A stretch of 63,940 nt of DNA, filler included, from Rhizaria sp. SCN 62-66 (Eukaryota): NCBI GenBank assembly GCA_001724265.1. It is 5 parts of 5 records of this genome, joined end to end, with 100 filler letters (N's around TTAATTAATTAA, not from the genome) between each part and the next. Parts side by side here need not be neighbours in the genome. Positions count along the whole stretch, not along the records: positions 14,056 to 28,001 come from MEDY01000517.1; positions 28,102 to 41,908 come from MEDY01000518.1; positions 42,009 to 55,791 come from MEDY01000519.1; positions 55,892 to 63,940 come from MEDY01000592.1; 1 more part is not named here. One strand, written 5' to 3'. This document shows, piece after piece, positions 18,904-63,356 of the stretch. The notes under the pieces are model-generated. The model made no database searches, was not told the origin of the DNA, and saw only the letters and a list, made by a program, of their open reading frames with translations. Made by a program: the position numbers and the translations under genes. The stretch's first letter is position 1, and the number at the start of each line of letters is the position of its first letter.

Positions 18904-21900
18904 TTAGTAGCCATCACCGTCACCATCACCGCCACAATCGCCGTCAGCCTCACCACTGTCACTTGCGACTTGCGAGGCCGCGACCTCGGCCTCCACCTCT
19001 GCAGCAGCGGCCGCAGCAGCAGCAGCAGCGTCGGCCCTCCAGTCCCCATAGCCTCCGTAGCCACCACCACTGCTATTACTGGTGTTACCGCTGCCATGAC
19101 CGCTGCCCTAGCCCCCAACCGCGCCGGTCCCGACACCAGAGTCGGCGTCGTCGTCCTGTTCGTTGCCCAGCAGGTCCTCGCCGAGGTCGTCGCAGTGCCC
19201 GTCGCCGTGGTCAGCCCACGCGGCGTCCTCGACCTCGCCGGCCTCGAGCTCCATTGTGCTCAGCAGCCGCGCGCCCACAGCGGCCGCGCCCGCGCGCACG
19301 GCAGCCGCGCGGTCGAAGTACGCCCGCGTCGCGCTGCCCGCGCCACCAGAGCCTGCAACCTCTATCGCGCCGCTGCTGCCGTAGTTGCCGCTGCTCGCGG
19401 TGGCGACGCGGACGAACGGCAGCACGTGCTTCTCCACGCGCGCCCCCGCGCGGCCGGCCATCGCGGCCGTGACAAGCTTCTCCAGCACGGGCCCGTCGGC
19501 CGCGCCCGCGCCCGCGGTCGGGAAGGACAGCCCCGCCGTAGCGTACGCCTCTGCGTCGGGCGCGGGCACTGGCGCTGTGTAGACCTCGCGGTAGAGACAC
19601 ACTTGCGAGAAGGCGTGCGCAAGGGCGCGGGACAGCGCGGTCTTCTGCGCCTCGTTTAGCGGGCTGATAAGGCCCGCGTCTGCAAAGGCTTCGACACCGG
19701 CGCCCGCGCTCTTGCTGCTGTTTGCGCTGCTACCACAACTGCTTGAGCTAAAATTGGAGCTGGAGGTCGGTAGCGGGCGCAGAGGTGCAATGCCGAGGCC
19801 GGTCACCACGAGTGCAGCGGGTGCGGGGGCAGCTAACGACAAGGCAGCATCAGCCGAGAGCGCGCGCGCCCGGCCCCCACACTCGCCGACACCAAAGTCG
19901 TCGGAGTTCGAGTCCGGCGTGAGCGACAGCGCAGCACCCCCGCGGCGCGCGAACACGCCGGGCCCCGCAGTGAGCGGCAGCGCGGCCACGGCGCCGCTGC
20001 GCGCGCTGGGCAGCGTGACCGTGAGTGTGATGACGGCGTGCACGCACGCGCCCTGCGCGATGAGGTGCAGCAGCGTAGCGGGGCCCGCGGAAGCGGGGCC
20101 GCGCGAGGGCGCCGGCAGCGGCTTTCCACCGTCGGGCAGCACCGCGATGCGCAGTGGCAGAGACATGAGCAGCGTGTGGAACGGGTTCGTCTGCTACGCC
20201 GCTGCTGCAGCTGAAGCCGCTGCTGCTGCCGCTGCATTCGCGGGCTGGGCAAGCGACTGCGACTGTGCAATCCCACTCTGCCGCGCCTGACTCTGCTTCT
20301 GTTGCTGCTGCTGCTGTTGAGGCGCCTTCTGCGCGGAGGCCGCAACGGCGGTCGAGCGCGCGCGACTGCGCTCGAGCGCCTGCAGCCGCTTGGCCTCGAC
20401 CATGGCCTTGACGTCCGCCTCTTTGCTCGCCGCCGCCGCCGCGCTGCACTGAAACTGCTGCAGCGTGACCGGCGGCGAGGACAACGCGGCGACGTGCTGG
20501 TCGCGTTGCGCCTTGGTCAGAGTGAGTGCGGCCGCTGTGGGGGGCCCGTAGAGCTGGACGCCGGAGAACACGGCGCGGCGGTGACCGACGCCGGTCTGTG
20601 AGCCCCAAAGAGGCTTGTATTCACTGCGAGCACGGCGGGACGTATGGGCACCAGCTGCACTTGCTGCATTCTCAACGTCGTTGTCGTTGTCAGCGGAGTT
20701 GGCATTAAAGGAGGCCAACGCGGCCGCAAGCATGCGAGCACCGTTGGTAGGCCTCTTATCATAGGCACGAGTACTCGCGCTATCTGGAGAAGTTGGAGCA
20801 GCGCAGCTACGATGTGCGAGTGCAGGAACAGGTGCAAGCGAGTCGCAAAACGCCATCGCCCCAGAGCAGTCAACACCACCATTGCCATTGCCGTTGCTAC
20901 ACTGCGGCGCCGAGGGGGCGAGCGACGAGAACACACGCCTGCGCCCGTGTCCCGCGCCCGGCTCCGACCACAGTGACACCGCACCGCCACCGTTGTCGTT
21001 AGACTGCGCTGGAGCGCCCCAGGGATGCGGACAGTGCGAGGGCGCGTCTGGGGACCGCTGCCATATCACTCCAGTCAACGGAGCGCCGCGGCGACCGAGG
21101 CCGAGTCCCGCAGCGGTCGCGCTGCGTTTGCCCATAAAGCTGCTGGCATTGCTGCCACCAAGGGAGCCGGCGCCACCGCAGTCGCGCAGTCCCACCGTCG
21201 GCACTGCCGCCACCGCCACCGCACCAGACAGCACCACAGCGCCAGTGCCAGGCTCAGAACATGCAACAGAGCCTCCGCCGAAAACGCTCACACCGGCATT
21301 GTTGCTGCCGGCAAGAGTGAGCGCAAGCGCGGCCCCGGGGTCAGCCTCCGTGGCCGCAGAGCGCGGCGGCACGGGCACCCATACGCGCGCGCTGGCCCGC
21401 AGCGGGCCCGGCATGCGCGGGAACTCGGACGTCGCCACGTCCCACACCGACGGCGCCTCCACAGCCGCCACGGACCGCAGCAGCGGCGCCAGCGCGGAGG
21501 CTGCGGCGGCCGTGTCGAGGCCTGCGTCCCCGCGCTGCACCGCCGCTGCGGTGTGGGCAAGCGCGCGCGCGTGCGCGGAGACGGCCAGGGTCTCAGCGCG
21601 ACGCCAGTGCGCGCTGTGCGGTGTCTCCAGCTCCAGCTCCAGCCCGGCCTCTGCTGTGTTCGCACCGGCAGACGCAGCGCCGTGGGTGCTGGAGACGGTG
21701 TAAAAGGCTGTGGCGGCGGGCGCGGCGCTGAAGGCTGGGGGCGACACGAGAGGTGTAAGTGCAAGTGGCATGCGACCGAGCGGACGCCGGCGGACGACGA
21801 GATCAGTGAACTCACCGTCATCAACGTGGGCTCCAGCTTGACGGTGACCTCCAGCGTTGCTGTTATGAGAGTGAATTTGAGCAAATGCAGCGTTAACCCA

Positions 21901-28001: not shown

Positions 28002-28101
28002 NNNNNNNNNNNNNNNNNNNNNNNNNNNNNNNNNNNNNNNNNNNNTTAATTAATTAANNNNNNNNNNNNNNNNNNNNNNNNNNNNNNNNNNNNNNNNNNN
28101 N
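28002..28101. other. Artificial contig linker
   Basis: N-run with TTAATTAATTAA. Confidence 0.97.
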
Positions 28102-29507: not shown

Positions 29508-32500
29508 ATGTGCGCGTTTAGCCGCGCTTTGCGGGCGCTATTGACGCTCTCAACGCTGATTTTTGTCTTCATATTGGTCCTCGGTGCCCCTCCAAGCTCC
29601 GCCACTGCTGCGCACAGCCCGATCAATAGCAGTAGCCCTTACGTTCCGCGAGTTGATGACAATGACGACACTGCTGTTAACATAGCCCCGCCAGCGTTTC
29701 CGATTCAGATCGACTCGGAAACGCGCGCGCTCGCCTACATGCGCTTCATCGACTATCTCACTGACAACTCCACAACGCGTGACCTTCTGTACCAAAGTCC
29801 TGTACACTTGCCGCCAAGCTTCTGGCGGAAGCTCGCGTTTGCGCTTGGTGACCCTTCGGACGGCCTTCCTCCTGATTATGTTCCAGGTCAGCCTTTAGAA
29901 ACTCCAGAGCAAGCGAACGCATTGCGCGCTGAGCGCGCCAAGTCCGCAAGCAACAGCCGCTTTGCTATGCTGCGCTCGCTTCGTCTCAGTCACGTTCGCT
30001 CCCATCGTGGTAATAGCAGCAGCAGCAGAAGCTCCAACGCCGGCAACAGCGGTACCACAAACAGTTACAGCGCTGATCATGATTTGTACAGTCGTAACAC
30101 AGGAACCTTTTTCCCAGCAGCGCACCAGATGCGTGAGCAGCAGTTTCAACAGCCGCAACAGCAGCCCGTCCGAGGTTTTAATACTCAAGCTGCGGCCGGT
30201 GGTAGGGTTTACGGGTATCGCGTTGTTGGTTCTGTTAAATACAGGGTAAACTCGTCTACGGCAGTCGAGGCTTACGGCTACCATGTCACCGAAATCCTGA
30301 TGTCAGTTGAGTGCACAGCGTGCACCTCCTTCCTTCTGTATGCAGGGTGGGCAATTTTCACCCCACAAATAACCGCATTTGTTGATTCGCCGTGCACTGG
30401 TGCTGCTGTATATATTGACAACTCGTGCAGTGAATATTTTTGCTTCTCCTTCCCTGCCGGCTTAGCTGTGAGCTCCTGCCCATCGACTCAATACCATTCT
30501 TCTCAGTTTTGGACAAGCTTTGTCGCAGGTGGTGCCTCCGACACGTCTGTACTAAATAAGCCTGGATGCATATCCGATGGTCGGACCAGTGCCTACTATG
30601 CGTCTACAGTGATTCCTGGCTACTCGATCGGCACTGCAGTCATGACTCCAGTCACACCGCTGGTACAGTATGACGTGTATCAACTGTCTGCCGCTATAAC
30701 CAGCCTGGGCGCAGTTCGCACAGGCACTGAGACGTCGTTCATCCTTGAGCTGAGCATACGTAACATCGTTGCGCGCTCCTTGGCATCGATCAAAGCTGCT
30801 CATGATTCTATGACGGGGTACACTTATAGTACAACCGTTGTTGACTTAGAGATCGACATCACTACCAGCAGCGGTGCTATTATAAGTGGGATGGACTATA
30901 TTGCTGTTGGACATACCTACATTCCGTTCTCCGCCCCGCTAACTGAGTCGAATGAAGCTGGAATTGCCTCCATTTCGTTGCGCTAGAAGAGGTCTAACAC
31001 TTAGTATGTGTTCCGGCTTAACCTCGGATACGCATTCCATAACTTCAATCCAGCCAACTCGTTGACCCTCCGCTTTCTTGCTTACACGGTCACCTCACTC
31101 TCGGCATTTTCCTCCGCTGCCTTATCAGTCTCTGCCAGGCCATCAACGTTTTTTACTGCCTCCCCTTCCTAGTATTGGAATTGGTTCGGATGTGGCAATA
31201 GCTACGCTAGCACGCGCATTTATTCTCCAGCTCAGCTACAGTTTGACGTGGAAGGAACAATGCGAACGGGCTCATCCGGATCCAATAATCTCCTTACAAC
31301 CTCATTTACAACGTGGTATAATGCCGGTGTAGAATCCCTTTTTAGCAGCGTTGGCGGCGTGCGCGGCACGATGCGCTTTTGCGATAGCTCGCAAGTGCTC
31401 TTCTCGTCAAGTTCTACCATTACAAACTCGGGTTGCTCCGTTGTCTCAGCCGCCACAACACGCTTTGTCTTTAGTTGCACTGCCGCGGCGACTCTTGGCT
31501 CGAGCAAGGTGCAATTAAATATTACGAACGTACAGTCACCTTCGAGTAAGGGGGCCCCATTAATCCCAGCGTATTGCCTTATGATTCATCTGACATCACA
31601 AGCGACCACGGGCTACCCAGTCACGGTGGCAACTTCATTAGCGTCGGCCATTGTTGCTAGCATGCGTACAATGTCTTACAGCTACAGCCCGAGCTCGCTT
31701 GTGTTGACGCCTGCTTCGGGCGATTATAGTCAGGTTGTTTCTACGTTTAGCGGTACCTTTAACATCGAGGCCGGCGAGAGTCTTACCACTTCCTCCTCTC
31801 TTACCTTCACAACAACCATGACATCATTTGACTTCTCTTCGGCTACCGCCTCGAGCGGCTGCACAGTCGCCAGCGCCGCGAGTAACCAGCTAGTGATCAG
31901 GCCAACCAGCGCCGTCGGTGCTGGCTCCATGATTTACTGCGCTGTTGCCAACATGCGCGTTGTCTTTGCCAACGGAGCCTCGCGTGTGTCATCTCTTGAC
32001 CCGTACATTATGAGTAAAGACGCACTGAAGCTCACGTCGCCATCAATCAACACGGGCATCTCCTCAAGCAACGACTTTGTGATCCGCGCTAGTACTGCGG
32101 CCTACTGGTGGCATATGACACCGACCAACCGCGTGCTTATCCAGAACTCCGTCCTTTCGTCCTCGCGCATGCTGCAAGTCAGCATGCTCATTTACTTCTA
32201 CGCCACGAGCCCTAGTGCCAGCAGTATTTCGTACACTGTGTCGTCATCGTGCAGCGACATTACGCTCGTCACGGCGTCAAGCTCGGTTTCGCCGTCGGGA
32301 GACTACCGCGTCACGACAGGAACAGCAACTTCAATCATCTTTGATGTTACGAACACGGCACGCTACGCGCTGGATCTGGCCTGCTTTAGCATGGGCTCAA
32401 TTGCCCGCGCTGTGGCTGCAACGCAGGCAGTGTCTCCGTACTCTCGTCAGATTGACTTCGTGTTTTATCCTGCGCGCGCGAGTCTTAGCTCTGGTATCGA

Positions 32501-41908: not shown

Positions 41909-42008
41909 NNNNNNNNNNNNNNNNNNNNNNNNNNNNNNNNNNNNNNNNNNNNTTAATTAATTAANNNNNNNNNNNNNNNNNNNNNNNNNNNNNNNNNNNN
42001 NNNNNNNN
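41909..42008. other. Artificial contig linker
   Basis: N-run with TTAATTAATTAA. Confidence 0.97.
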
Positions 42009-42359: not shown

Positions 42360-43188
42360 GTTACTAGATAGCCTATCGCAAATTCGACGAGAACCGTCCT
42401 TCTCCCCGAGACCTCACTGGGCTTGGGGGACGCCGCAACCCCGCCGAGTCCCGTCAATTTTCTGGGCAGATTTTCTACGAACCGGGCGTGCCAAAAATCG
42501 TAACACCACAGTCGCTGTGTGGACGGTACAATTTATTTGAACCGAGGGCATGTAAAGGGCGATATTGGTTCAGAAATTTGTGGGCTGTAACAATTTTTTG
42601 ATTTGTATCTGCTGGCTGGCGAGCGGCCGCTATTATTTGTTGTTTAGTGACTTAAACTGGGGTGCTTCAGCCGTGCCCGTCGAGGAAGCAGTGGACATTC
42701 CGAGCCGCATGCTCCACGCCCGCCTCTGGACACCGCATTTGTCCGTCTGCCGCACTACAAAACACTCTTTATGTTGCAACGTGCTAACAACTCCCGCGCT
42801 GCACGATCTAAATCCCTTCGGTGTTGGATTGTCGCTACATACTTGTCTTCAAACTTCTCTCCGTGCCCCCCCTACATTCGCACTCGCTACTGCCCTTTCT
42901 GCTCTCTTTCTACTCCCACATTCTCTATCTGTGTCATTCACACTCCATAACGTACACTGCGCCACGCTTTTTACTGTACATTACCGTAGGCTTTTGCCCC
43001 GTTTCCGGACAGGACTCCTTTATCTTCCCGAAGTACTCCAGCCCCCCCGAAGCGGCAACTCCACCCCCCTTTGCTCTTCCGGCTCTCTCGGCCTCGCTCC
43101 CGCTTTTGCGCGCTTTCCTCCACCTGCGTCAACCGACTGCCCGTGCTTTTCACCGCGCGCTCCCCCCGCCGCAGTTCCCCGCCGCCGC

Positions 43189-46100: not shown

Positions 46101-49100
46101 CGGCGGCGTCGTGTTCAACAACGTGCACGGCCAAACGAGCGCGGGCGCCACGGCCAGCTCCGCCACGGGCGCCGCCGTCTCGGCTGCGGCGCGTACGCGC
46201 GCATACTTCCTGCCACCGCGCCCGCGCCCGTCGCGCGCCTCCGTCACTGCCTACCACCGCTCGCTGCTGGCGGCGCTCGCGGGCGTGCTGCGCCGCACGC
46301 TCGGCGGACAGGTCTACATCACGGGCGATCTGGCGCTCAAGACGCGCCGCGCGGCCGCCGTGGCCGACGACGGCGCCGAGGGCAGCGGCAGCGACAGCGA
46401 CGTGCAGGCCATGCCCGTGCCCGGCGCCGTCGCCGCGCACGGTGCCGCCAAGGCGCGCGTTGGTGCCAGGGCCCGCGCGCGCGCCCGCGTCCGCAGCGCC
46501 GCCGCCGCGGCCGCCGCGAATGCAGCGGCCAGTGCGAGTGGCAGCTTGAGTCCTGTTTCCAAGGTTGACGTCGCTACGTTCAACAGCAGCCTCGTCGCGG
46601 AGGACAGCAACGCTACTGAGGACGAGGACAACGGCCGTGCCGGCGGCGACTGCGGCGGTGACGACGACAGCGACGACATCGCCGAGCAGCACTACTACAA
46701 GCACGACTGCAACGGCAACAATCCTCGCTCCAGCTCTGGCTCTAGCTTTGGTGTCTGCTCCGCATCGTCTTCCCAGTCAGCCTCTGCCTCCGCTTCCGCC
46801 TATGTGTCCCCGTACCCGCTGTCGGCGATCCCGCCCGTGCCGCTGGAGCTGTCCCTGTTCCTGGCCCGTGGCGCCGAGGGCGTGTGGATGCGCCGCACCG
46901 CGGGTGTGCTCTGCTCCGAGGTCTGGTTTGCGGGCGAGTCGCGTGCGCGCATGACCGTGGGCGCCTACGCGCGCACGCGGGCTGCCGTCGCCGACGCCGT
47001 CATGTGGCTCACCGAGCAGGAGAAGGGCCGCCACGAGCGCACGTTGAGTCACCGCGGCTTCGGTTCGCGTCTCAGCGATGACGACGACGAGGCTGATGAC
47101 GCTGATAGAGATGCTGAGAACAAGGCAAACGACGACGAAGATGGCGATGAGGCCAAGGCCTTGTCTGCGACGACTGCTGCCGCCGCTGCTGCCATCGCCA
47201 GCGCCCTCACCAACGACTCCAACGCTCTCACGACTGTCGCTAACAACAACAACAACAATAGTGCTGAGATCGACGTGGTTGTGACCACCCCCGGCGGCCT
47301 CGCCAGCGCCAGCGGCCCCAGTGCCGACGCCGTTGCCAACGGCGCCGCCGCGGGCGCGAACACGAGCGCCGCTGCGAACGCGGCTTCGGGGGGCAACAGT
47401 AACAGCAACGCGCCTGCGCCGTCGTCGGTGTCGCTGGCACCGTCGTCCATCTCGCTTCTGCCGACGCCACCGCCTCTGTCGGTGCTGCGGTCCGCACACG
47501 CCGCGGCGCACGCCACGCGCATCTCGCGTTTCAGCGCGCTGCTGACGCTGCCGCTGCCGCCGCGCGCGCGCGCCGCCGCCGCTGCCATGGCCGCCGCGAT
47601 TCCAGCCGAGGATGAGTGGCAGAGCTTCCTCCGCTCCGCCGTCTGCCCGCTCTCCTCGGCATCCTCCACTGCGTCCTCTGCAGCGCCTCCCAGTCAGGAG
47701 AGCGGTGAAGGCGCCGGCGAGCTGGGACTGCGGACCCCTTACGGGCGCGTCGGCATCAGCTCGCCCGCGGGCGCGCTGGCCGTGGCGCGCTGTCTGCTCT
47801 CCCAGTCGGGCATCATGGATCCGCGCGGCTACACGCTCAACGCCCTGCACTCGGCCGCGACCGCCGACGCCGCCGCGGCCGCGACCGCCGCCGCCGCCGC
47901 CGCCGCGGTGGCCGCGGCCGACGCCGAGTCCGAGGCTGCGCTCGCCGAGGCCGTCGTCGGCCACGGCGGCTGCTGCTCGCCCACGACCGCGAGCGCCATG
48001 GCGACCGGCGCGGCCGAGGCCGAGGCGGCGGCTGCGGCTGCGGCGGAGGCTGCTGAGGCCGCGGCGATGGGCATCACCCCCGACGCGGCCTGGTCGGCCC
48101 TCGCCAACGCGCTCGTGCCGCCCTGCTTGCGCCGCTACGGCAATGCCGCCGCGAACGCTACCGCTGCTGGTGCCGCCGCTACTGCCGCCGCTGCTGCTGA
48201 GGCCGTGGAGTGCGACGGCCACGGCTGCGGCTGCGCGGCCGACCGCCGCCGCCGCCGCCAGCGCGCCCGCCTCTCGCAGCCTCGCAGTGCCGACTCGCAC
48301 ACGGGCGCCGAGTCCGACTCGTCCGGTCTGACCGCCGAGGCGGCGGCCGCGGTGGAGGCAGACGCGCTGAGCCTGCTGCCGCCGCGCAGCCAATGGCCGC
48401 GGCTGGGCGAGCTGCTCGGCGTGCCCTGGCTGCCCGCGGTGCTCACGGCCACCGTCGCCGCGCGCACCGCCGCCGCGCTCGCCGCCGCCACGGCCGCCAC
48501 AACCACTGCCGTGACGGCGGTGGTTGAGAGCGCCGGCGCTGCCGCGATCGCTGCGACCGCTGAAACTGCTGAGGCCGCGGCCGCGGACAGCGCTACCGCG
48601 GTCGTGGCCGCCGCCGACGCCAGCACGCTCGGCCACGGCCACAGCTGCAGCCGCAGGCGCCGCGGCGCGCGCGTGGGCCCGCTCGGCGTGGGGGCGTTCG
48701 AGTCGGTCTGCGCGTCGCTGCTGGCGTCGCTGCAGCCGGCACTGACGACTCCGCCGCCCGTGCCGTCGCCCGCGTACCACAACATGATCATCACGCTGCC
48801 GCCGCTGCCCGCGCCCTCGAGCCTCCCGCAGCCGCAGCCGCACGCCAACGCGAACTCACAGTCGCAGTCGAACTTCGCGAGTGCGACCAGTGGCAGCTCT
48901 ACCGTGACCGCGCCCGCTGGCAGCCTCGCTTCCCCTACGTCGTCGACGGCACCGCTGCGGTCGAGCGTGTTCCCCAGCTCTGCCACGCCCAGTCTGTGCG
49001 CCATCGGCGCCGTGTCGCGCCAGCACCTGCCCGAGACGCGCCTCAACCTGCGCGCGTCGTCGCTCAGCTCGCTGAGCGGCACGGCGCTGTTTGAGGCCGC

Positions 49101-52100
49101 TGACGGCGGGATCGGCCGCTCGCACCTGCTCAAGCAGGCGTACGCGCTCGCCGTGCTATGGCTGCGCCGCTGGGGGCTGCTGTGCGGCGGCGGCGAGGCC
49201 GAGGCCGAAGCCGCGTGGGCCGCCAGTATGCACGCCGAGGTGCTTGAGGCGCACCCGCTGCTGCTGCTCTCGGCCGCGCTCAGCTTCACGTCCCCGCACG
49301 CCGCGCACGATGCCTCGAACAGCATCTACAACAGCGCTGCGGCGACGCTGCCCGGGCTCTGCGCGGTGTTGGCGGGCGCGACGGATGCCTCGGCCGCCGC
49401 GCTCGCGGCCGCTGTGGGCGTGGGCGCCGGCAAGAGCTCTCATAACCACGGCCGCGCTGGCGTTATGGCGAGCGACGAGAGCAAGGCCGACGGTTACACC
49501 GCCGCCGAGGCCGAGACCGAGGCGGACACCAAGGCGGAGACCGAGTCTGGATCGGGCTCCGACGACGGCGAGGCGCAGGTGTTCGTCAAAACGCGCCGTT
49601 CGCAAGCCGTCGTGATCCCCGGCGCCGGCGCGGCCTCCGCCCAGGCCAGCGCGGCCGCGGCCGCGACGCCCATGTCGGCCAGCGACGCCGTCGCCCCGAC
49701 CACCGCGGCCGACAGCGTCTCCAGCAGCGGCGTTAAGGCGACGCGCGACTCGGCTGTGTTCCCGTTCCACTCCAGCAGCACGGGCGCGCCCGCGAGCGGC
49801 GACAGCGTTCCCGGCGCGTTGAGCCCCTACCCCGCCAGCGACGGCGGCGCCTCCACGGGCACGGTCCTCGCCTCGCCGCTCACGCCGCAAGCGCCGGTCG
49901 CAAGCAACGGCGGTGGCGCGCTCTCGGCGGCGGCGGCGGGCGCGGGGGGCTCCAGTGCGAGCGCGTACGGCTACCGGCCCGCGCACAGTCCCTTCGCCGC
50001 TTCTCTCTATAACAGCAACAACCACAGCAGCAGCGCCGCAGCGCACCCCCAGGGCGGAAGCCACGGCCCAGGCGCCCAGCAGCAGTCCTCCGCGGCCGCC
50101 GCGCAGTCGGGCGTGCCGAGCCTTGACCTGGACTCGCTGCCGCCGATTCCGGCCCCATTCGCGCCACTCGCGCCGTCGGCCTTTGCGGCCTTCGCGGGCC
50201 CCACGGGCACCAGCGCCTCGGTTACCGTGGCCACCGCCGCCGCCGCCGCCGCCGCGACCGCGGGCTCGCCCGCCGGCGTCACACTGCCCACTGGCGTCCC
50301 CACGTCGTTGGTCCGCACGCTTCTGCTCTACATCTTCAACACGGCCGCGCCGCCGCCGTCGCCGCTGCACGCGCTGCTGGCGCTCATCACGACGCTCGCC
50401 ACCACCGACTGGCGCGCCGTCGCGCTCACAGTCGCCGGCCCCATCGAGCGCGCGCCCTGGGAGCGCGCGTGCCGGCTCGTCCCGCTGCCGCCCGCGCTTG
50501 CGCCCTTCGCCACCGCGGCCATCGCCGCGCCCGCGCCCTCCGGCAGCTCCAGTATCACTGGCGGCAGCAGCAGCAGTGGCACCAGCAGCAGCAGCGCGAC
50601 TGCGGGCCCGGGCAGCTCTCGCACCACCGCTCCCAGCGTCGCTGTTTCCGCGGCGAACAACAACAACAACACTGTGCCCGCCGCCGCTGCCGCCGCGAGC
50701 GCGAGTGCGGCACCGGTGGCGCCCCCCGCGGCGCCGCTGATTACGCGGACGCTGCTGGCCCCCTTCGCGCTGGGCCCCGGCTCGGGCGGCGCGACTGCGG
50801 CCCCTGCGCACGCGCTCGTGTCGGCCGCGGCGACCGCGGCGGCCGCGGGCGTGCTGGCCGTCACCTCGCACTGCCACGGCGAGCGCGAGAAGGCGCGGCT
50901 GCTGCGCGGCCGCGGGCGCGTCCTGAAGCGCCGGGCCGCGAAGCAGCAGCAGCAGCAACAGCAACAGCAGCTGAAGCTGAAGCAGAAGCAGGGAGACGAC
51001 TCTGACTCGGCGTCCGCGTCTGCGACTGTGAGGGCCCGCAGCGACGCGGACGAGGAGGAGGCCAAGACCGGCGGCGACGGCGAGAGTGACAATAGTGAGA
51101 GCGAGGACGCGTGCTTCGACGCAGAGGCAGACTCCTGGCTCCGGATCTGGCTCCACGTGCCCGCCTGCGCGCACGCCTGGACGCCGCAGCAGGAGTCCCC
51201 CGCTGGCCGCCATAGTAACGAGGCGGGCGACGCGAAGCTTGTGTGCGGGTGGCCCGCGCCGCAGCCGCCGCAGCTGCTTTCTCAGGAGGAGTATCTCACT
51301 TTCATCACCACTCCGTACAGCGTTGCCCAGCAGCAGCAACAGCAGCAGGCTGCTGCAGACGCAGCCAACTCTGCGGCTGACGCTGCTGCACCTAGCTCTC
51401 CCGCGCCGAGTGGCACGCATGACGCGCTCCTTAGCGTGTCGGCGGCCAAGCTGGGCTTTCGCCAGTCCGGCATGGCTGCGACCGCGGCGACGACCTTGTC
51501 TGCCGCCGCTGTCACCGGCTTCGACGTCCTGCGCGCCGCGAGCTCCTTCTCGAACTCCAGTGGCACTGGCGCTGGCTCTGGCTTAGGCTCTGCCTCGGCG
51601 AGTGCCGGTGCATCGACCCCTCAGCAGCCCCAGCACCATTCCCAGCAGCAGCAGCCGCAGCAGCAGTCGTCGTCGTCGTCGTCGTGCCCGCTTGCGCCGG
51701 CGATGATCGCCGCCGCCTCGGTGATTGCATCGTCCCCGGCATCCTCCATGGTCATGGTCGACCCCCTGGACGGCAACAACAACCAGGCCCTTGCGCTCAC
51801 CCCGGCGACCGTGCGCGCGCTCATCTCCGTCGCGCGCCACTGCATGCACAGCGTCGCGCACGCCGCGGCACAGACCTTCGCCACCGTCACGCCCGCCGCC
51901 TCCGCGCCCAGCTCGTCCTCGTCCTCGTCCTCGTCCTCTGCTGCGGCTGTGGGCCTCGCGGGCCACAGCGCGAGCGGACTCGGCCCGAACCCCCTGTCGC
52001 CCGGCTCGCCCGGCGCGGCCGGTGGCAGCGCGTACAACAGCAAGGCGCGGACGCAGACGCCGACCTCGCAGTCGCAGCGCATGCACGCGCGCACGCACTC

Positions 52101-55100
52101 CGTCTCGCAGTCCTCCTCGTCCTCATCTTCGTCGTCATCCTCGCGGTCGCTGGCGCTGGCGCTGGGGTTGAACACCAGCTCGCTCTCGTTGAGCATCCTC
52201 GACCGCGCTCTGGCGGCCACCGCGCCGCTGTCCAGCTCCGCGGGCGCGCACGCCGGCGCCGCCTACAGCGCCGGTCAGGGCGCCGGGGCCGACGGCGGGT
52301 CGCTGTCCCCGCGCCCCCACCACGGCGCGCAGCAGCAGCAGCTGACTCTGACCGGCAACGGCAGCGGCGAGCCCGCATCCCCCGGCCCCGTTTCGCAGTC
52401 CCAGCAGCAACAGCAGCAACAATCGCAGTCGCGTCGCTGGCGCCGCGGGGCGACCGTTGTCTCGATCCTGCGCCGCTGCGGCGCGCGCCCCCCCGCCCGC
52501 GCCTTCCCTGCGCCCTCGCCCGCGCTCGCGCTCGCGTCCACGCTGCCCCACGCCTCCGCCAACAGCAGCAGTAGCAGCGGCGGCGCGGCCGCGGCCTCGG
52601 CCTCCGCCGCCGCCGCGGCCGCCGCGGCCGCCGCGGCCGCCATGGTCGCCGCGGCGTCGACCGGCGTGACGGCGTGCCCGATCCCGCCCATGCCGAACGA
52701 CTGCGGCGCCTTCGCGCCCTCGAGCATCGCGCTCTTCGCCTCGGCCAGCGCGTCCGTCGCTGCGCTCGTCAGCCGCGGCAGCAGCGCCGCGCAGGGCGGC
52801 AGCAGCACTAGCGGCAGTGGCGCCTCGAGCGCCGGCAGCGCGGGCGCCAGCGCCAGCGCGTCGTACGCGGCTGCGTCCGCGACTGGCGGTTCCGCCGCCG
52901 GGTCCGGCGCGCCGCACTCGACGCCCGCGGCCGCTGCGACCGCTGCTGCGGCCGCCGCGACCGCCGCCGCGGCCGCCGCGACCGCGTCAAATGCGGCTGC
53001 CGACGACGAGCACAGCGCCACACACAGCACGGCCACGGCCGCCGCCGCCGCCGCCTCGGCCGCCGCCGCCGCCGCTGCCGCGGCCGCAGCGGCCGCGCAC
53101 CAGCAGCAGGCTTTCGTGCACCAGCAGCAGCTCTCGGGCGCCTGGGAGGCCGCGCACCTGCTCTTCTTCGCGCTGTTCCCGCCGCTGTCCTCACCGCTGA
53201 CGGGCGCCATCACGGCCGCGACGCCCGTGGCCGCGGCCGCCGCCGCCGCCGTCGTGGGCGCGCGCGCTACCCGCGCCGCGACGACCGCGGCCGCCGCGTC
53301 CGCCGCGTTGCACCACAATCTGCTCGCGGCCTCGGTCAACACGGCCGCCGCGGCGACTCTGGCTGCGCTGGCGCCGCCGCGCGGGCTGTCTGCGCACGCC
53401 GCCGCGCTCGCCGCGGCCCGCGCGCCGCCGCCGATGCTGCCGTTGGCGCCCGTGACCGTGCCGCGCCGGCACCGCATGTTCCTCGACGCGTACCGCGACC
53501 TGTCGCTGACGTTCGCAGCCGCGCACGCGCCGCTGTCGACGATAATCTACACGCCCAGCACCGCGCAGCAACAGAGTGCACAGTCGCAGATGCAGTCGCA
53601 GAGTGCGAGTGCGAACAGCGGCGTCAGCGTGACCGTGGTCGGCGAGGAGCAGACCGAGGCGATGTCGCTCTCGTCTGTTATCACCAACGTCGGCACCGAT
53701 GCCTCTGCCGCTGGCGGCGCTGCTGCTGCCGCTGGCGGCGCTGACGCCGGAGTGGCTGCTGCTCGCCGCCGCCCGCCTACGGTCACCATCGCCGGCAGCA
53801 GCGGCACGCTGACTGTCGGCTCAGGATCCATCGGCAGCAGCAGCGGCACTGCGCTGACGGCGGGTATCTACGGCGGCGGCGCCGGCTCGGCTGCGATCCC
53901 GCTCACGGTAACGCTGCCCACACCATCCTACACGGCGGCGGCGCTCGCGGCGGCCGCGGCCGCGCTGTCCGCTGTCGCCGAGGCCGCCGAGTCCAGCGCC
54001 AAAAGCAAGGCCGTGAGCAGTAACGTCGAGCACGTGTCGGACGCGGCGCTCGCGCTGGCGTCGGCCGCAGCGTCGCTGCCGCTGACGGCGTCCATCACGA
54101 TCCCCGTCCCGCCCACGCTGCTGCCGCCGCACGTCGCCAACTCGCTCGCTCACAGCCACGGCCACGGCCACGGCCACGGCCACGGTTACGGTCAGGGGAA
54201 CGCTGCCCACAGCAGCAGTGGGTCGGCGGCGACGCAGGGCCAGGGCCAGAGCCAGACCACTGGCAGCGCCGCACCGCACTCGCACTCTGGCGATACGCTC
54301 ACCCTTCCCCTGAGCGGCCCCAGCGCTGGCGCCGGCGCCGGTGCAGGCGCGAGCGCGAGCGCGAGCGCGAGCAAGACGGCCGCGAGCGTGTCGCTGGGCA
54401 GTCTGTTCAAGCCCTACCGGTCCTCGTCGGTGTCGCCCTCCGCGCAGCTCACGCTCGACGCCTGCTTCCCCTACGCATACGCGCCCTCGGTCACCGCGGG
54501 CGCCGCCGCTGCCGCCGCCGCCATGGGCGCCTCGTCGACCTCCGGCGGCCGCTTCGGCTCCGTCAACGGCTCCAACTCCTCCGCCACTGGTGCCGCCGCC
54601 GCCTCGACCTGCGCTGGCGCGGGCGGTCTGGGCGGGGGCGTGTACGTGCCACCGCGCGTCTTCTACACGCTCATGCCGCTGCCCGCCTCAGTCACCAGCC
54701 CCGGCGCCAGTGCCGCCACCGGCTCTGCGGCCACCGCGACCGCGGCCGCTGCGGCTGCAGCGGGCGTGTCCTCGAGCGGTGGCAACGCGCAGGCCTCGGC
54801 CTTGCCCCCCGCCGCCGCGCTGGCCGCTGCGGCCGCGGCCGCGAGCGCGACCGTGCCAGTTTCGACGCAGCTGCTTTCGTCGGCCTTCTTGACGCACACG
54901 GGGCCGCTGGTGCTCGCGGCCCTGGCCTCGGTCACCGACTCCACGGACTCGGCCGCCGCGGCCGCCGCCGCCGCGGCCGCCAACGCCGCCGCCTCCGCTG
55001 CTGCGGACGCTGACAGCGACGCCGCCTCTGCGGTGACCGAGAGTGTCACTGCGGCTGCGGCAGCTGCTGACGGCGCGCCGTCGCTGCTGCAGCGGCACCA

Positions 55101-55791
55101 GACTGCCGCGGGCGTGGGCTACGGCTCGTACCCGATCGCGTTCGGCAACACCGACTGCGAGCTGGCGGCGCCTTCGTCCATGGCCGCCGCCTTCACCGGG
55201 CCCTGGCACGCGCCGCTGCCCGCCGCGCTCGCCGCCATCGCGCCCCCCGCCGCCGCGGCGGCCGTGTCGCCGGCCCTCGCGCCGCTCGACGCGGCCGGCC
55301 CCGATACCGCGGCGCGCGCGGCGGCTGAGGTACCCAGCGCCATCGGCACCGCTTGCAACAGCGCCATCGCCGCGCTGTGCCTGCCGCCCGCGCCGGCCTT
55401 TGTCGCCGCCGCAGCCGCCGCAGCCGCCGCTGCCGCCGCAACCGCCGCGGCGACGACGCCCGCGCCCTCCTCGGCCGCCGCCGCTGCCGCCGCTGCCGCC
55501 GCTTCGGCCGCGGCGAGCGCCGGCCAGTCAGGCTCGACGGCCCTGGCTCTCGGCTCTGCCGCCGCGCCGGCCTCGGTCTCCGGCTCTGGCCCAGGCTCTG
55601 CCGCGGGCGCCGACGCCGACTCCGCGGCGACCGCGGACTACGCAGGCCCTTCGCTGCTGGACGACCGCTCCCTGGCGTCCCCCGCGGCGCACACCGGGGT
55701 CGTCTCTGCTGGCGCGGTCTCCACCGGCGCCGTCGCCGCCGCGGTCGCTGCCGCCGCTGCTGCCGCCTCCGCCGCCGCCGCGGCCGCCGCT
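43189..55791 (+). CDS. Giant low-complexity protein (>4200 aa, 3' partial) containing a dispersed, degenerate non-canonical poly(A) polymerase / PAP-OAS1 substrate-binding-type nucleotidyltransferase fold
   Basis: Collinear blocks: RPSRASVTAYHRSLL..GGQVYITGDLALKT (~46225-46344), PLELSLFL (~46840), TRLNLRASSLSSLSGTALFEAADGGIGRSHLLKQAYALAVLW (~49036-49161), GVPTSLVRTLLLYIFN..PLHALLALITTLATTDW..LTVAGPI (~50293-50445), MVDPLDGNNN (~51754). These resemble plant/protist NTP motifs QVFTFGSVPLKT, DIDL, HLFKRSIILIKAW, STYALETLVLYIF, FDW..SLWGPV and IDPLRENNNLG. Confidence 0.72.
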
Positions 55792-55891
55792 NNNNNNNNN
55801 NNNNNNNNNNNNNNNNNNNNNNNNNNNNNNNNNNNTTAATTAATTAANNNNNNNNNNNNNNNNNNNNNNNNNNNNNNNNNNNNNNNNNNNN
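55792..55891. other. Artificial contig linker
   Basis: N-run with TTAATTAATTAA. Confidence 0.97.
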
Positions 55892-55906
55892 TTCATGTGG
55901 TAATCC

Positions 55907-56007
55907 AGTGATGTTTATTGGGGATGGGGAGTCTGGCCGAGTGCCGCCACACCACAAACATGTGGGGGAAGAGGCTCAATCGGCCCAATTCGCGACCCCC
56001 GTGTCAA
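55907..56007. repeat. ~100-bp dispersed repeat, copy 2 (contig start)
   Basis: Near-identical to 2..102. Confidence 0.9.
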
Positions 56008-56570
56008 TGACTGCAACGGGCACCACTTTAACCGCCTCAGTCAATCGGCCTCGTTGTGTTTGTTCACGTACACGTAGTTTGATCGTAATTTTGCTTCTCC
56101 AGCTGTGATTTTGTATTGGCATGCTTGGTATTATTAGTGCGTTTTTGCGAATCCCGTATGAGGTTTGATAATTGCTTCCAGGAGCACGTTTTTGTTGTTC
56201 TCCACAGCCTCACTCCTATTCCTTGAGGCCCTTCAAACCTCATATTTGAGCATTATTGTGGTCACTTCCAACACATGTCCTCGATATATGCTGCAGGTGG
56301 GCGATGTTTCTATGTAATATATGACACGATACGGATAATCATGCCGTACATCTTTGTGTCAACGCGTTTTTGTTCACACACCCTCATCTCCCATCACACC
56401 CGTTTGTTTAGGTTGCACAACAACATTCTAGCCTCACGATTATCGAGTTTCGCGACGAATTGTTACCAAAGCTTTTTTGCTAGTTTCCTGTCACACAAGT
56501 ATCCATATTGGCGGACAAATCGCTGTTTTTCTGACCTGCCTGAGTCTCTCAGGGTGGCTCGTTCATTGGA

Positions 56571-59500
56571 ATGATTGTCTCGAAGAGCTCCAACTATGCA
56601 CTTCTCCTGACGTGTATTATTTTTGCTGCTCTGGGTATCACAGCTATCATCTATGCTGTATTTGTCTTTACTACATCAGAATCGCCAGGAGCAGTGAACC
56701 TGCAGAACAGCCTCAAACTGCCTAGCTCCGTTGTTCTCACCAAGATCCCACTTTTTTCGCGTGTGACAACGGGCACGGATGGTGACAGTACCGAATCAAC
56801 CTCTCCAGACATCGCGCCACCAGGCACGGGGTGGTCACCGGCGCAGGAGCGTGCTACTGTCGCCGCCTACACCGCAGACAGCGCTCTGGCCCGCGCCCGG
56901 GGGTTCTGGACCGCGCTGTCGGAGGAGGGCGGACCGCTGGACGCCACGCCGGGGCTATACCGGCCGCTAAGCTCGCGCTTTGTTCCCATGGCAGTGCCGC
57001 GCACTGTAACCGCGACCACTTCAGTGCGTGCATCAGCATCTGCTCAAGCCTCCACTGCAGGCTCAGGACCGAAAGCAGCTTCGGAGATCACGGCGTATGC
57101 TTCGTCGCAGCTGCTGACGATCGCGCGCGAGGCCCGCGCCCCGCTGCACTCTGCGCTGCCGTCTGGTCGCTTTTTTGACGCGCGCAACCGCGTGTCGCCG
57201 TTCGTCGCCGCCTACGGCCGCATGCTGCGCCGGCCCGTGTGCAAGTTCTGCTCTCCCCGCTCCCGTGGGCAAGGTCCCAGCTCTGCTAAGCGCGACAACG
57301 AGACGCCGTGGCAGTCTGTCTCGGGTGCACGGTATCCGTTGCAGGACTGTATGGATCCAATTGACCTTGTGTATACCTGGGTAAACGGGTCCGAGCCTGC
57401 GCAAGCACAGAAGCTGCAGGCGACGAGGGCGGCCGTTGAGAAGGCTGAGGCCGCGGCTGCGGCTGCGTCACAGGCTGCGGCCGATGATGCGGCCGACACC
57501 GCCGCTGCCAACGATGCCGAAAATGGTCGCAGTGTTATCAACGAAACTGATTCTTCACCTTTGCTTAGAACAGTTACAGACATCAAATTGACGACAAAGT
57601 CAGATATCAATGTCGGCGTTGGATCACTGCAAGCAACAGCTGAGAAGCAAACTAAGGTGATGACGAGAGTGCCTTTTAGTGCGTATGCCCCCCGCACGAA
57701 GTTTGGAGTTTTGGCTGCGAACGCGAATGCGGCTGATGGAGGAAGTCTAAACGACGCGGCTGTCGACCATCGCCGGTTTCGCACTCTTAATGAGCTTAAA
57801 TACTCTCTCCGCGCCACCCTTGCCAACGCGCCTTGGATTCGCCACGTGTTTATCGTAACTGGAGACCAGACTCCGTCGTGGGCTGAGCCGCGCGCTCTGA
57901 TGGCGAGCGTTGCTGGAGCGCACGCGAGCGTGAACGCAACGCTTGCATCGTTCCTTCCCGCGCTTAAAGCCGCGACTGATAATGGATCTAGTAAGACTCT
58001 GGCTGATGTTGATGCTGCATCTAACTTGGGTGACACACGGATTAATGGGATCACCCCTGGACTTACTCGACAAGACATTTTAAAGTATCTTGAAGCAGAG
58101 GATCATCTCGTCGACGGGTTTAACTCAAATCAGAAATTTACCATTGTTTCGCATTCGGAAATCTTTTTAACTCCAGGCTTATCAATGCCTATCTTTAACT
58201 CCAATGGCATTGAAACGGCCCTACACCGCATTCCAGGTTTGTCAGATACGTTTCTATACGCAAATGACGACGTGTTTATTGCAAAGTCTTCACCGCAGTC
58301 GTTTTTCCATGAAAATGCGTTTGGTCAAGCGATACGTTACGCGTCATATCCTCTTCAGACCTGCGCACCTGACTGTGCACTGACCATGGTTGGCGACGGT
58401 GTGTGTAATCCACAGTGCTACAGCGCTCTATGCCACTTCGATCTTGGTGATTGTGAGCGCAATTATATCACCGCTCCATCTGAAGCAGTTGCATACGCTG
58501 CGCTTTTGAGCTTTGCCACGACGTTTGCAACGGATAGTTTGATCTCAAGATCAATGACTTTTTTCCACAGTACTGATAGTCGATCTGTGAACAAACGCGG
58601 CAACGATGAGAGCACAGGTGATGGCTCATTTAGCAACATTTCGAGCGGCAAAGTTTTCAGCTCGTTCACCTCTCGTGTGTCGAGTTTTATTGACGAAAAT
58701 CGCCTCCGCGAGATCAGCAGTCAGGGAGTCTCTCGTCAGTCGAATCGTGTGTCGCGCGATGCTAAGTCTTCATCTGTCGGAACTCCATTTATTCTGTCTT
58801 TATTCGAGTCCACCGAAGCATACACGACTGCGGTCGCTGCAAACAGTGTGAGCGTCAGCCCTGTGCTCGCGACGCTTGCGCGCACGTTAAGTTCGATTGT
58901 TGCGAGGAACAATACGAGGTTCAACACTAGCACAAGCTCTAGTTCGACTGCTAGCGCAACCGACTCAGTGCCGGAGTCATGCGCGCCTGGATGTCCAGTC
59001 ACATGGCTTAACGACGGCGTCTGTGACAATGCGTGCGACACGGAGGCTTGCGAGTGGGATCGCGGCGACTGCGACGTGCGTTCCACAACTTTGTCAGCAG
59101 CCAACCAGCGCGCGCGCTACTACCGACTGCTCGCGAAGCAAGCGCGCGCACAGGCCGCGGTTGGCGGTGCAGCGGAATCTCTCCTCGCGCGTCTGACTGC
59201 CCCGCCTGAAGCCTTTGCACTGTCTGCTGCGGACCTTGATGCGGCGACTGCTGCGATTATGGCCGCACAACGGCGCCGCGAAAACGTCGACTTGCGCGAC
59301 CGGAGCTCTGGCATCGGCTCACGGTGCGTAAGTGCGCGCACGTGCACGAGCATTGCTCTGTCTCTTGCAAACACGACATTTTCCCCCGCTGCGCTTCCGT
59401 TGGAGATGACAGACGATGACGTCATTTCTTCAGCGGCGGACGAGGCTGCGATTGCTGCTGTCGCAGCAGCGCGCGAAAGCCAAGCATCAGCAACTTCGAA

Positions 59501-61007
59501 CGTCAAAAACAAACCACAGGTTGATTCTAAGCCATCTTAGTTCCTTGCGTCATTATTACCCAGTTCGGCATTAATAATCTATAACCGACACCTTACTTTC
59601 ACAACCCGCACCTGGCTTGCACAGTCATTCTGGCAGCGCCCTGTCGGCTTTCGCCATGAACACGATCACGGCTACATCTTACCCCCAGAAGATGAGACCA
59701 CTGTCGACGCTACCGCATCCGCTATCGAGGCGAGTGAACAGGAGACCCCCTCACAGTCTGAATCAGACTCCGAATCTAAACATGAGACTACCTCTCCGTT
59801 TACGTACGAGTCGTTGTTGTTGTCGTCTGATTTTGTGCCTTTGACATCGTCACGCGCGCGCATTGCTCGTGCGTCTGCTCCTGTGATGCAGCAAGCATGG
59901 AGTCGTCGTGTGCGCAGTGCCGGCCGCGCCTTACCGATTGCGCCTTTGTCTCAATTTCAAGAGGCGTACTCCGCCTATATTGCACAAAATATGATCAACT
60001 CACTAAAAGCAACAGGCTTTGCGATTACTTCACCGCCCCTCCACTCAACTACATCTACTAACAGGCACGTTGTCGCTCACATTCACGCATTGCTTCCTGA
60101 GGAGTTTCTTAAAACAGAGCAAACGCCGCTGCGACGCTTGTTGGACGCGCAATTCACCGCTCTTATTATCCCATTTCATTACACCGCGCGTCACGGCTCG
60201 CTCGCCACGCTTGCTGAGGCCATGTTTTCAGACTTTGATTGGGATTGCAGCGGTCAACTTGAGGGCGACGAAGTGCGAGCTTTCTTGCAAGCGCTCTCAG
60301 CGCCAGCTCCTGAGCTTCCGCGGGAGTATTCGGACTGGAAAGATGATAACCCACGTTTTCCGTTTGCCGCCCCGTTTGCGCTTGACCGCAGGAGCTTTGG
60401 TGACAATAACTTAAGTACCGAAGAGCCAAGGGGTGAGCAAACAAAGAACGTGACGGGGCGTGCTTATGTCACTGAGATGTTGCCTGATGTTGTTCCAGAT
60501 ATGAACTTAGGCGACGGAGACACAATGCGTGCGCGCTTCCTGGGTGCTGCTTCCACTGTGTACGCGGCTAATGGTGCCCCAGCGGCGTCTTTATGCGATG
60601 ACAGATGTGATGCACTGATGCGGACGCAGCCGTGGAGTATGCGTAAACTCGACAGCGACAGCGTTTTGAAAGCGATTGTTTCTATGACTCTTGATGAGTT
60701 TGTGTCGTGGGACACTGCACTTGCTTTGTTGCAGCAACAGCACCTTCGATGGCGCTCTATGTACCCAACGTACCGCGAACCGCAAGACTTTCGTTTTCAC
60801 CCTCTTGGGCGGAAGAGCTCTACACTTGACAAGTTTCGACATGAGCTGCGCGTAGTCGCAGCATTTTTCGCTAGGCCTGAGCGCAATACGTTGTTGTGCA
60901 TCAACGATGACATGAGTAACAGCGAGGATGAACTGCTGGAAGCCTTCGCGACAACGCTCGACTACCAACTGCCGGCCAAGACTATGCTTGAGGATGACAG
61001 TCTCTAA
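56571..61007 (+). CDS. GNPTAB: Stealth-family GlcNAc-1-phosphotransferase alpha/beta-like protein (~1478 aa) with one in-frame TAG (59538-59540)
   Basis: N-terminal TM; CR1 PIDLVYTWVNGS; CR2 NELKYSLR..APWIRHVFIVT and FNSNGIETALHRIPGLSDTFLYANDD; two LNR/Notch repeats. After the TAG, in the same frame: CR3-like RHVVAHIH, EF-hand DWDCSGQLEGDE and CR4 LLCINDD. Stop TAA. Confidence 0.85.
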
Positions 61008-61883
61008 AACAGGATTTCATGTGATCATCACATGTTCTTCAACTCATCCTTCATGTTAGGATTTGATGTCTATTACATTGTACATGTACTTTTATTTGGT
61101 CTGTATATATTTTTTTGCTCTTAATTCTTAACTTTCAAGTACTACGTAATAAACTTCTGAGTCGCGTCCTCAACTGTTATCTGAATGACTGAAACCATTA
61201 TGTGTTTTCTTTGCCAGGACATAGTGACCATCCAGAGACAATCAGCGACCGGATGAGACTGGGTTAGCCGGTGGCTCTTGAGGTAGCCAATAAGATAGAG
61301 CTTGCGCGCTAAAAGAGAGATCATTGTCGCGGACTCTGCATGCCGACACATTATCAACTCATGGCTGCTGTACAGAACGGTTGGATCTCGTCATAGATCG
61401 CGGCCACGCCGTCGGGGTGCAGCGGCGAGCGCGACGACACCCAGGAGTCACAAAGTGTACTATTGCGGTTGGTGAACAACAATGTTTTAAACACACGCGT
61501 ACCAAGTAGAGATGTGCCTTGCTTGAACGAGAGATGTACAAGAGCGGGACCGTGTGTGCAGCCATCGCCGCTGAGCGACGAATTGCCGGCTTCGGAAGCG
61601 AGACAGGAGGGGAACGAAGGTAATGGTGTTTATTTGCAATGGATCCGACATAGGTGGTACTTACATGGTCAGAACCAAAGGAGCACTCACCAAACGACGA
61701 GACAAAATGCTCAGGCAATACGTTTCGCTCATCATACGGAACGACTGAGGTCCTTCACTTTGTGCTCAAAGCGATCCGACGTATCGGGAAGATTAACTTG
61801 CACAAAAGGGAATACGTAAACTATTATATATATTGTGCGCTATATATCAGGTGACTAAGGTGTGATATTTCCGAGAAATGTTA

Positions 61884-63356
61884 TCAATTCCCCGTTTGAC
61901 AAAGATCATCTAGACTGACGCCGTCAATCTTGTCTTGCCTCCAGACAATCTCCATCTTGTTTTTGAACATTATGTGCTCGTTCTACATCAGCCGTTGCTT
62001 TCGTTTCAGTTCCGCAGCAGTGAAGGGCTTGATGTGGAGCGAACCGTCAGTCCACAGCCCCAGCGACTCTAGCGACGGCAGCGCGCCGTAGAGCCGCGCC
62101 TCGGTCAGCGCCGTGCTCTCGAGCCCGTTCGTGCCAGGCCGGTACGCCATCGAGTCCAGGCTCGCAGTGACCCAGTGGAACGCGCCAAGCTGCGGCAACG
62201 GCGCATAACGCAAAATCGTCGCATTTACTTTGCTGTATCCATCAGCTGAATAGGGCGAGACCGCGTTCACGCGCAAGACCATGTCAAAGTATGCTTTGCG
62301 GTTGTTGCTTGCAGAGGGCGTGACAGTTTGCTTCTTGTCGGGGCGCGAGTGGTCTTCTTGGGCATATAGCCCAACCTTAGGGAGCAAACGGCGGAATCCG
62401 CTGTGGCGATAGGCGCGGTGATAAATGACGTTATCCTCGCCACCCCAGCCCCAGAAGTTGTTTGCGAAACCGTCGATAGCCCTGTACATCGCCACTGACA
62501 TCGCGAATACGCCACCAAAATGGCTTCCGCTGGTGCCATACTAGTCAACAGTTTTGGGGGCGGAGCACATGTGCACAGGCAGACCATCAACGCCGAGGTC
62601 ATAGGTGTTGTTGAGACTGAGCGGATACAGATCAGCATCATGTGCGACCACGTAGTCGTAGCCCCAGGACTCCGCCACACGAACGCCGAGATTCAACAAG
62701 TAGCCCTTGTTAAACGCGACGTCCTGGTCGTGCATTTCGATCACCAGCATCGCGTAGTCACGGCCAGGAACCTTACGAACAGCGCGCAGATGCTTGTCAA
62801 GCTTCTCGACCAGCAGGAGGATTTGTACTGAGCGCTCACGGAGTGTGTTGAAAGCATGCTCACGAAACGGGACAACAAGGAGCATCTTACCACCCACATT
62901 CGTAGCATTCTCAGTACCCTTGTGTGCTTTGATAACGTCGGGGTGGAACGGGGACAGTTCCGATGCCCATTCAGGCAGATCGAGGTCGGCGAGAGTGAGC
63001 TTGCGGTCGGCGAAGGGCGCTGTCTTAAAGATGCGCGTTGCGTTAGTGAGGTACTCACGCTGCGTGGCGGTGATGTTGGCAGTCATAGAAGGCGTTAGGC
63101 GGACAGCGCTCTCGAGAAGCGTGGCAGTGAAGGGAAATATGGCTTTGGCGGGATAGGCTGAGGGCGCGGTAAGGTTGTAGTTGAGCTACAGTAAAGCAAA
63201 GTTTGCGCTCTTGACGACAAAGAAGATCGTCAGAAGAACCACGGATGAAAAGATGCTCCCTATGATGAATGAGGAAGGTCGTTTGTAGCAACATCCTTGC
63301 TGGTTCGCGTCCGCGAAGTAGAAGGCATCTGTGAAAAGTACGTCCTTCGAGGACAT
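61884..63356 (-). CDS. GT7 beta-1,4-galactosyltransferase-family type II membrane protein (~490 aa) with three in-frame TAG codons (63186, 62541, 61983)
   Basis: ATG 63356 (MSSKDVLF..), signal anchor FIIGSIFSSVVLLTIFFVV, then VVPFRE, FNKGYLLNLG, HDADLYP, FGGV, GFANNFWGWGGED, all in one frame broken only by TAG. First non-TAG stop is TGA at 61884-61886. Confidence 0.88.

Follow-up and report, generated by a model that had tools for sequence, protein, structure and literature searches.

UAG as a probable sense codon, with UAA and UGA as stops, in the nuclear genome of a wastewater eukaryote

We examined a 63,940-nucleotide stretch of DNA (the window) from the genome assembly of Rhizaria sp. SCN 62-66 (GCA_001724265.1), and we conclude that UAG is very probably translated in this nuclear genome, with UAA and UGA as the terminators. 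The window consists of five pieces joined end to end, with linkers of N at 13956-14055, 28002-28101, 41909-42008 and 55792-55891, and it is eukaryotic DNA, with multi-exon genes and GT-AG introns of about 165 nt. The finding concerns ten TAG triplets in four genes on three of the contig pieces: two giant open reading frames (ORFs), P0001 and P0002; a Stealth/GNPTAB-like gene, P0003; and a GT7 galactosyltransferase-like gene, P0004. These TAGs lie inside continuous, conserved and selected coding sequence. They had been noticed in an earlier reading of the same DNA (the original prediction), several claims of which are taken up below.

Results

All ten triplets (10/10) are TAG on the coding strand and in frame. 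Nine coding stretches, 16,113 codons in all, contain 10 TAG, 0 TAA and 0 TGA codons. The original prediction of 10 in-frame TAGs and no in-frame TAA or TGA in the four genes thus has every coordinate right, and the frames are open over the larger codon set as well. The other frames of the same genes are rich in all three stops. For example, frames +1 and +2 of the 4,142-codon gene P0002 contain 32 and 65 TAA, 37 and 49 TAG, and 83 and 113 TGA codons, respectively. TAG is used sparingly: it accounts for about 0.06% of all codons and, in the mid-GC genes, for about 5% of those of Gln type, and 4 of about 10 genes contain it.

The pattern of stops is not that expected of decay, which, as had been argued, would leave other stops and frameshifts. 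Neither was seen: there are no frameshifts in the 8,953 codons of the four TAG-containing genes. Given the codon content of these genes, a random nonsense substitution produces TAG with a probability of 0.46-0.49, so that ten TAGs out of ten would arise with P of about 5e-4 to 7e-4. The seven identifiable termini (6697, 7900, 12521, 18603, 18904, 61005 and 61884) comprise four TAA, three TGA and no TAG, in agreement with the earlier claim that all of them are TAA or TGA. Those at 7900, 12521, 61005 and 61884 lie where the matched family or the homologues end. The remaining three (6697, 18603 and 18904) are placed by the end of the open frame and by composition only, and the one at 18603 is the least certain.

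The coding signal continues across the TAGs. We used a codon log-odds model that was trained for each gene away from its TAGs and scored on fifty-codon flanks. The original frame was top-scoring on 20 of 20 flanks (including 4/4 in P0001 and 8/8 in P0002), with a positive score on 19. In P0001, GC per codon position is 0.54-0.84 after both TAGs and drops to 0.32-0.40 only past the TAA; the Stealth gene shows a similar pattern around its TAG and TAA. The frame remains open for 5, 32, 55, 67, 185, 214, 361, 488, at least 1,720 and 1,857 codons past the TAGs, compared with 0-38 codons past the seven TAA and TGA ends. Three of the seven next stops beyond those ends are TAG, indicating that TAG is not rare outside coding sequence. 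The frame is preserved at each TAG, as had been proposed.

P0004 (61884..63356, minus strand; 490 codons, ending with TGA at 61884) encodes a GT7 beta-1,4-galactosyltransferase-like protein of type II membrane topology, anchored at its N-terminus. Its three TAGs are at 63186 (codon 57), 62541 (codon 272) and 61983 (codon 458). Codon 272 sits between the matches to Glyco_transf_7N and Glyco_transf_7C, with the conserved catalytic blocks GSHFGG and WGWGGED downstream of it. Three homologues (P0005-P0007; 42-57% identity) align over the entire protein, and the three TAG columns are ungapped. Translation with NCBI table 15 (the Blepharisma nuclear code), in which TAG is Q, reads P0004 through.

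P0003 (56544..61007, plus strand; 1,487 codons, ending with TAA at 61005) has a single TAG at 59538 (codon 999). Stealth regions CR1 and CR2 and two Notch LNR repeats precede it, and weak matches to EF-hand and to CR4, both under the Pfam cut-off, follow it. In an exhaustive HMMER search with residues 850-1487 as the query, the region after the TAG matched the C-terminal parts of three long homologues (P0134, P0135 and P0137; 1,040-1,787 amino acids). In all three, a single polypeptide has CR2 and LNR in its front part and CR4 at its end; CR1 is seen in P0134 and P0135, and CR3 in P0135 and P0137. Since the single-chain homologues carry CR4 (and, in two of them, CR3) C-terminally, a working P0003 enzyme should need readthrough of the TAG. 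The database products of P0003 are split at this codon: P0133 and P0138 are cut exactly there, with P0133 ending at the TAG, and P0132 begins after it. A word-based search with the whole P0003 protein returned only two matches, neither spanning the TAG.

The remaining six TAGs are in the giant ORFs. P0001 (18904..27408, minus strand; 2,834 codons, 67% GC) is Ala/Ser-rich, has TAGs at 20194 and 19108, and ends with TAA at 18904. P0002 (29481..41908, plus strand) is a secreted-type, Ser/Thr-rich ORF of at least 4,142 codons that is open at the contig end; its N-terminus is signal-peptide-like and its TAGs are at 30984, 31002, 31170 and 36744. The two longest runs mentioned above, 1,857 codons after the TAG at 31170 and at least 1,720 after that at 36744, are both in this gene. 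Pfam searches matched no family in either P0001 or P0002. Comparison of P0002 with itself for internal repeats gave four alignments, none of them across a TAG. A scan of prokaryote genome contigs found no relative of P0002, and an Atlas look-up with part of the protein scored under the recognition level. A scan of Joint Genome Institute (JGI) metagenome contigs found one locus, L001, at 59% amino acid identity. Over about 1,400 homologous codons, L001 has a single in-frame stop, the TAG at 1895, and neither TAA nor TGA; the window codon aligned to this TAG is GAC (Asp).

The TAGs are not associated with recognizable splice donors. Both delimited introns, which are in the S15 peptidase gene, start with GTACG and end with AG, and no same-strand GTACG lies within 400 nt upstream of any of the ten TAGs. 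In the P0002 region there is no plus-strand GTACG between 28603 and 32558. The original prediction had noted the lack of a GTACG donor near the TAGs; the two introns establish that this donor is real, and the lack of it holds for all ten sites.

The stretch from 56544 to 63356 is present in metagenome runs from bioreactors, wastewater and activated sludge in several studies, and contigs of four runs (X2, X3, X4 and X7) were compared with the window over 55892-63940. The X2 and X3 contigs are identical to the window. Although filed under different studies and years, these two runs agree in their contigs, in depth and in their loose ends. X4, from another study, represents a strain that is about 1-2% diverged. 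It keeps the TAG at 61983 (in a piece with 0 differences) and the TAG at 63186. At 59538 it has C, making the codon CAG, and polyA RNA from the same study (X7) likewise has CAG there. The listed X4 pieces leave out 62541, and X7 covers 12 of 30 bins.

Among the strain differences listed for P0003 and P0004, with 59538 set aside, 19 are synonymous and 12 non-synonymous (there are 69 more differences beyond those listed), and just downstream of codon 999 three of four are synonymous. Purifying selection is visible between the strains. X4 DNA and X7 RNA both lack 3 nt at 60405, downstream of codon 999; this in-frame indel is the only one inside a gene.

The identity of the amino acid is less clear than the fact of translation. 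The homologue residues at the TAG columns are R; N, K, G and K; and G and A; and the TAG of L001 lies opposite D in the window. None of the nine homologue residues at TAG columns (0 of 9) is hydrophobic or aromatic. A per-site BLOSUM62 vote over five sites gave Q 4.5, R 3.0, E 2.5, K 2.5, S -0.25, Y -10.75, L -13.25 and W -14.5. The sole near-direct datum on the residue is the difference between TAG and CAG at 59538 in the two strains. Together, the CAG in the sister strain and the BLOSUM62 ranking make Gln the best guess, and we lean modestly towards UAG being Gln. The preference for Gln in the original prediction thus gains some support from the sister strain and the polar columns, with Glu and Lys also candidates. 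Leu, which had been kept as a live alternative, now appears unlikely from its score and from the polar character of the aligned residues; Leu, Tyr and Trp would all fit the TAG sites badly.

Discussion

The coding signal, the homologues, the architecture of the Stealth gene, the TAG in the relative of P0002 and the strain data all support the overall claim of the original prediction that UAG is a sense codon and that UAA and UGA are stops. We propose that the genome reads UAG as sense and terminates at UAA and UGA; with glutamine as the residue, this would correspond to NCBI table 15. By analogy with other reassignments, UAG would be decoded by a tRNA with anticodon CUA, the simplest source of which would be a copy of tRNA-Gln(CUG) with a mutated anticodon, and recognition of UAG by eRF1 would be weakened. 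The low usage of TAG in a GC-rich genome would fit a reassignment that is young or weakly used. More tentatively, and with some doubt, we suggest that this might be an independent, early-stage reassignment of UAG to Gln in a GC-rich eukaryote outside the ciliates, one that branches deeply and is spread widely among wastewater reactors.

Several observations weigh against the proposal that UAG is a dedicated sense codon, probably for Gln. There is no tRNA(CUA) in the window, where a tRNA scan and Rfam found only a Phe-GAA tRNA, and no eRF1 gene in the window. The termini number only seven: if TAG closed about 25-30% of genes, none in seven would still be expected about 8-13% of the time, and so UAG might serve as a stop too. 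No TAG column is a conserved Gln, four sites being variable polar columns, and without the strain datum the BLOSUM62 vote becomes R 2.0, D 2.0, K 1.5, N 1.5, E 0.5 and Q -0.5. A CAG>TAG nonsense allele confined to one strain would likewise leave CAG at 59538 in the sister strain. The comparison of independent runs takes in the TAGs of P0003 and P0004, and the six TAGs of P0001 and P0002 lie outside it. Being identical, the X2 and X3 contigs may derive from a single data set of the source's own study, in which case X4 alone is clearly independent DNA. Over 63186, the RNA contig shows three differences that are unlisted and gives no support for UAG being retained in RNA. Lastly, L001 has a 1-nt frameshift in a run of four A (1478-1481), and because of it L001 could be a decaying copy. 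The shift itself could be a homopolymer assembly error or a real frameshift.

Two of the alternatives accept that UAG is translated. It might be translated as a residue other than Gln, most plausibly Glu or Lys, with Leu, Ser, Tyr and Trp as precedents or near-cognate options. The BLOSUM62 vote without the strain datum is not for Q, L001 has its TAG opposite an Asp codon, and excerpts of PMC11687900 report UAG as Leu, Ser and Glu in other lineages. However, the sister strain has CAG in a gene whose listed differences are mostly synonymous, Leu, Tyr and Trp score from -11 to -14.5 with no hydrophobic or aromatic residue among the nine aligned, and Gln is the commonest assignment among the cases described in the excerpted PMC11687900 and PMC5304391. 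We regard a different residue as unlikely, though a serious competitor. The code might instead be ambiguous, as in Condylostoma or the karyorelicts, with UAG acting as both stop and sense, either by context or through an inefficient suppressor tRNA. Such codes are described, in the literature excerpts, for ciliates and others, and the rarity of TAG fits an intermediate stage; the small number of termini also leaves room for it. We nevertheless consider an ambiguous code rather improbable. None of the seven termini is TAG, and P0004 has three TAGs in 490 codons, so that poor readthrough would yield little full-length enzyme. Nor do the bases that follow the ten window TAGs and the TAG at 1895 of L001 (T 6, A 2, C 2 and G 1 of 11) have any known readthrough context in common; the frequent T reflects a following Tyr or Phe codon.

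The other two alternatives keep the standard code. If the TAGs were nonsense alleles in pseudogenes or in genes broken in this strain, the CAG at 59538 would fit a recent CAG>TAG change. In addition, the relative L001 has a frameshift besides its TAG, and P0001 and P0002, half of the four genes, are huge ORFs of low complexity that match no known family. This explanation is disfavoured, and we think it very unlikely. It would require 4 of about 10 genes to be broken, all ten changes to have produced TAG, and no frameshift to have accompanied them, and it would have to accommodate a coding signal that is undiminished past each TAG, two TAGs shared with a diverged strain, and the excess of synonymous over non-synonymous differences among those listed. 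The TAGs might also lie within short in-frame introns or be removed by RNA editing. The organism does have spliceosomal introns of about 165 nt, and three of the TAGs are packed within 190 nt (30984-31170). Yet the coding frame scores best through that very interval, the GTACG donor is missing upstream of every TAG, and four TAG columns are ungapped in the alignments (three in GT7 and one with L001). Over 59538 and 63186, neither the RNA nor the DNA contigs have joints indicative of splicing. As for editing, the single A>G difference in X7 lies elsewhere than the TAG at 63186, and position 63188 thus shows no U>C change. Removal of the TAGs from the message by either route is scarcely credible.

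Few nuclear genomes depart from the standard code, and decoupling of UAG from UAA is rarer still. UAG encodes Gln, with UAA retained as a stop, in Iotanema spirale, Protocruzia tuzeti, Hartmannula sinica and Trochilia petrani, and it encodes Leu in the uncultured rhizarian exLh and in phyllopharyngean metagenome-assembled genomes (MAGs) from TARA (excerpts of PMC11687900 and PMC5304391). Ser is assigned to UAG in the green alga Scotinosphaera (PMC11687900, excerpts), and one ciliate is described in the same way as using UAA for Lys and UAG for Glu. About nine lineages that separate UAG from UAA are named in the excerpts of the two papers. The cases listed in the original prediction are published, but that list was incomplete, with more UAG-only reassignments in the excerpted PMC11687900. 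With UAG-only reassignment known in several lineages, the present case is probably a further example of a known phenomenon. A literature search made without the organism's name found no report of such a code in wastewater or in a GC-rich non-ciliate eukaryote, which is weak evidence of novelty.

One of the closest parallels is Iotanema spirale (Fornicata), a non-ciliate protist in which only UAG is reassigned, UAA and UGA are the termini, and Gln is the likely residue (excerpts of PMC5304391). In Iotanema, however, 204 in-frame UAGs in 126 genes are reported, with Gln at 22 of 28 hyperconserved sites (same excerpts), whereas here there are 10 UAGs in about ten genes and no conserved Gln column. 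In addition, the present organism combines spliceosomal introns with a gene of ECH_2/HIBCH type and with GC that reaches 76% in its genes, features that together appear unlike a fornicate. The ciliates that use table 15 (Protocruzia tuzeti, Hartmannula sinica and Trochilia petrani) have the codon table that we propose here, according to the excerpted PMC11687900. In phyllopharyngeans, though, the same source gives UAG in 78-91% of genes at a genome GC of 27-54%; usage here is far lower, and GC in the genes reaches 67-73%. The contigs here, set against those ciliates, are multi-gene and at least 13.9 kb long, with introns of about 165 nt.

Like the present organism, exLh and the TARA phyllopharyngean MAGs have UAG alone reassigned, stop at UAA and UGA, are uncultured and, as described in the excerpts, are known from sequence only. 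Their Leu codes contrast with the polar aligned residues, the Leu score of -13.25 and the sister-strain CAG found here. Scotinosphaera shares with the present case a UAG-only reassignment outside the ciliates (PMC11687900, excerpts), but here Ser scored -0.25 compared with 4.5 for Gln, and there is no green-algal affinity among the named kinase matches.

A further non-ciliate case would add an independent origin, in a genome with genes of 53-73% GC and very sparse UAG, and could show an early stage of stop-codon capture. The combination of sparse UAG use and high GC is the most interesting trait. If the reassignment is real, it arose where composition should favour, not deplete, G-ending stops, and it would provide a natural test against AT-driven codon capture and for the ambiguous-intermediate route. 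There may also be a practical consequence. Gene callers that use the standard code cut proteins at UAG, as seen in P0133, P0138 and P0132, and eukaryotic bins from wastewater may therefore be systematically mis-annotated.

Other features of the window

GC varies from 48% to 77% along the window, and shifts of this range occur inside single contigs (window 1-63940). Besides the genes described above, the content includes a DYRK-like kinase, tandem papain-family proteases, an S15 peptidase, an ECH_2/HIBCH-type gene and very long intronless ORFs. The kinase gene (466..6699, plus strand) has 2,077 codons with 0 TAG and ends with TGA at 6697..6699. It is 72% GC, and the adjoining protease genes are in sequence of about 50-60% GC. 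Its kinase domain is 44-47% identical to metagenome proteins and about 40% identical to those of animals, Amorphochlora, Lagenidium and others alike.

The S15 peptidase (CocE/PepX-like) gene is on the minus strand, has three exons separated by the two GTACG introns, and ends with TAA at 7900..7902. A papain-family (cathepsin L-like) gene on the plus strand ends with TAA at 12521..12523; it is the first of two tandem copies (10653-12523 and 13260-13955) whose signal-peptide exons are identical and whose second exons are near-identical, and the second copy is unfinished at the contig end. The multi-exon ECH_2 (HIBCH-like) gene is also on the plus strand, and the TGA at 18603..18605 closes its last open frame; this is the least certain of the termini. 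From 42556 to 55791 there is an intronless open frame of at least 4,412 codons (73% GC) with no TAG and no Pfam family, which continues past the contig end.

At the start of the fifth piece, contigs of the DNA runs are 118-221 deep over about 115 nt (55892-56006), compared with about 2-8 over most of the rest. Rfam gave no match for this segment. It is also covered by RNA contigs, many contigs part ways at 56006/56007, and the segment has the look of an element that is present in many copies or shared widely.

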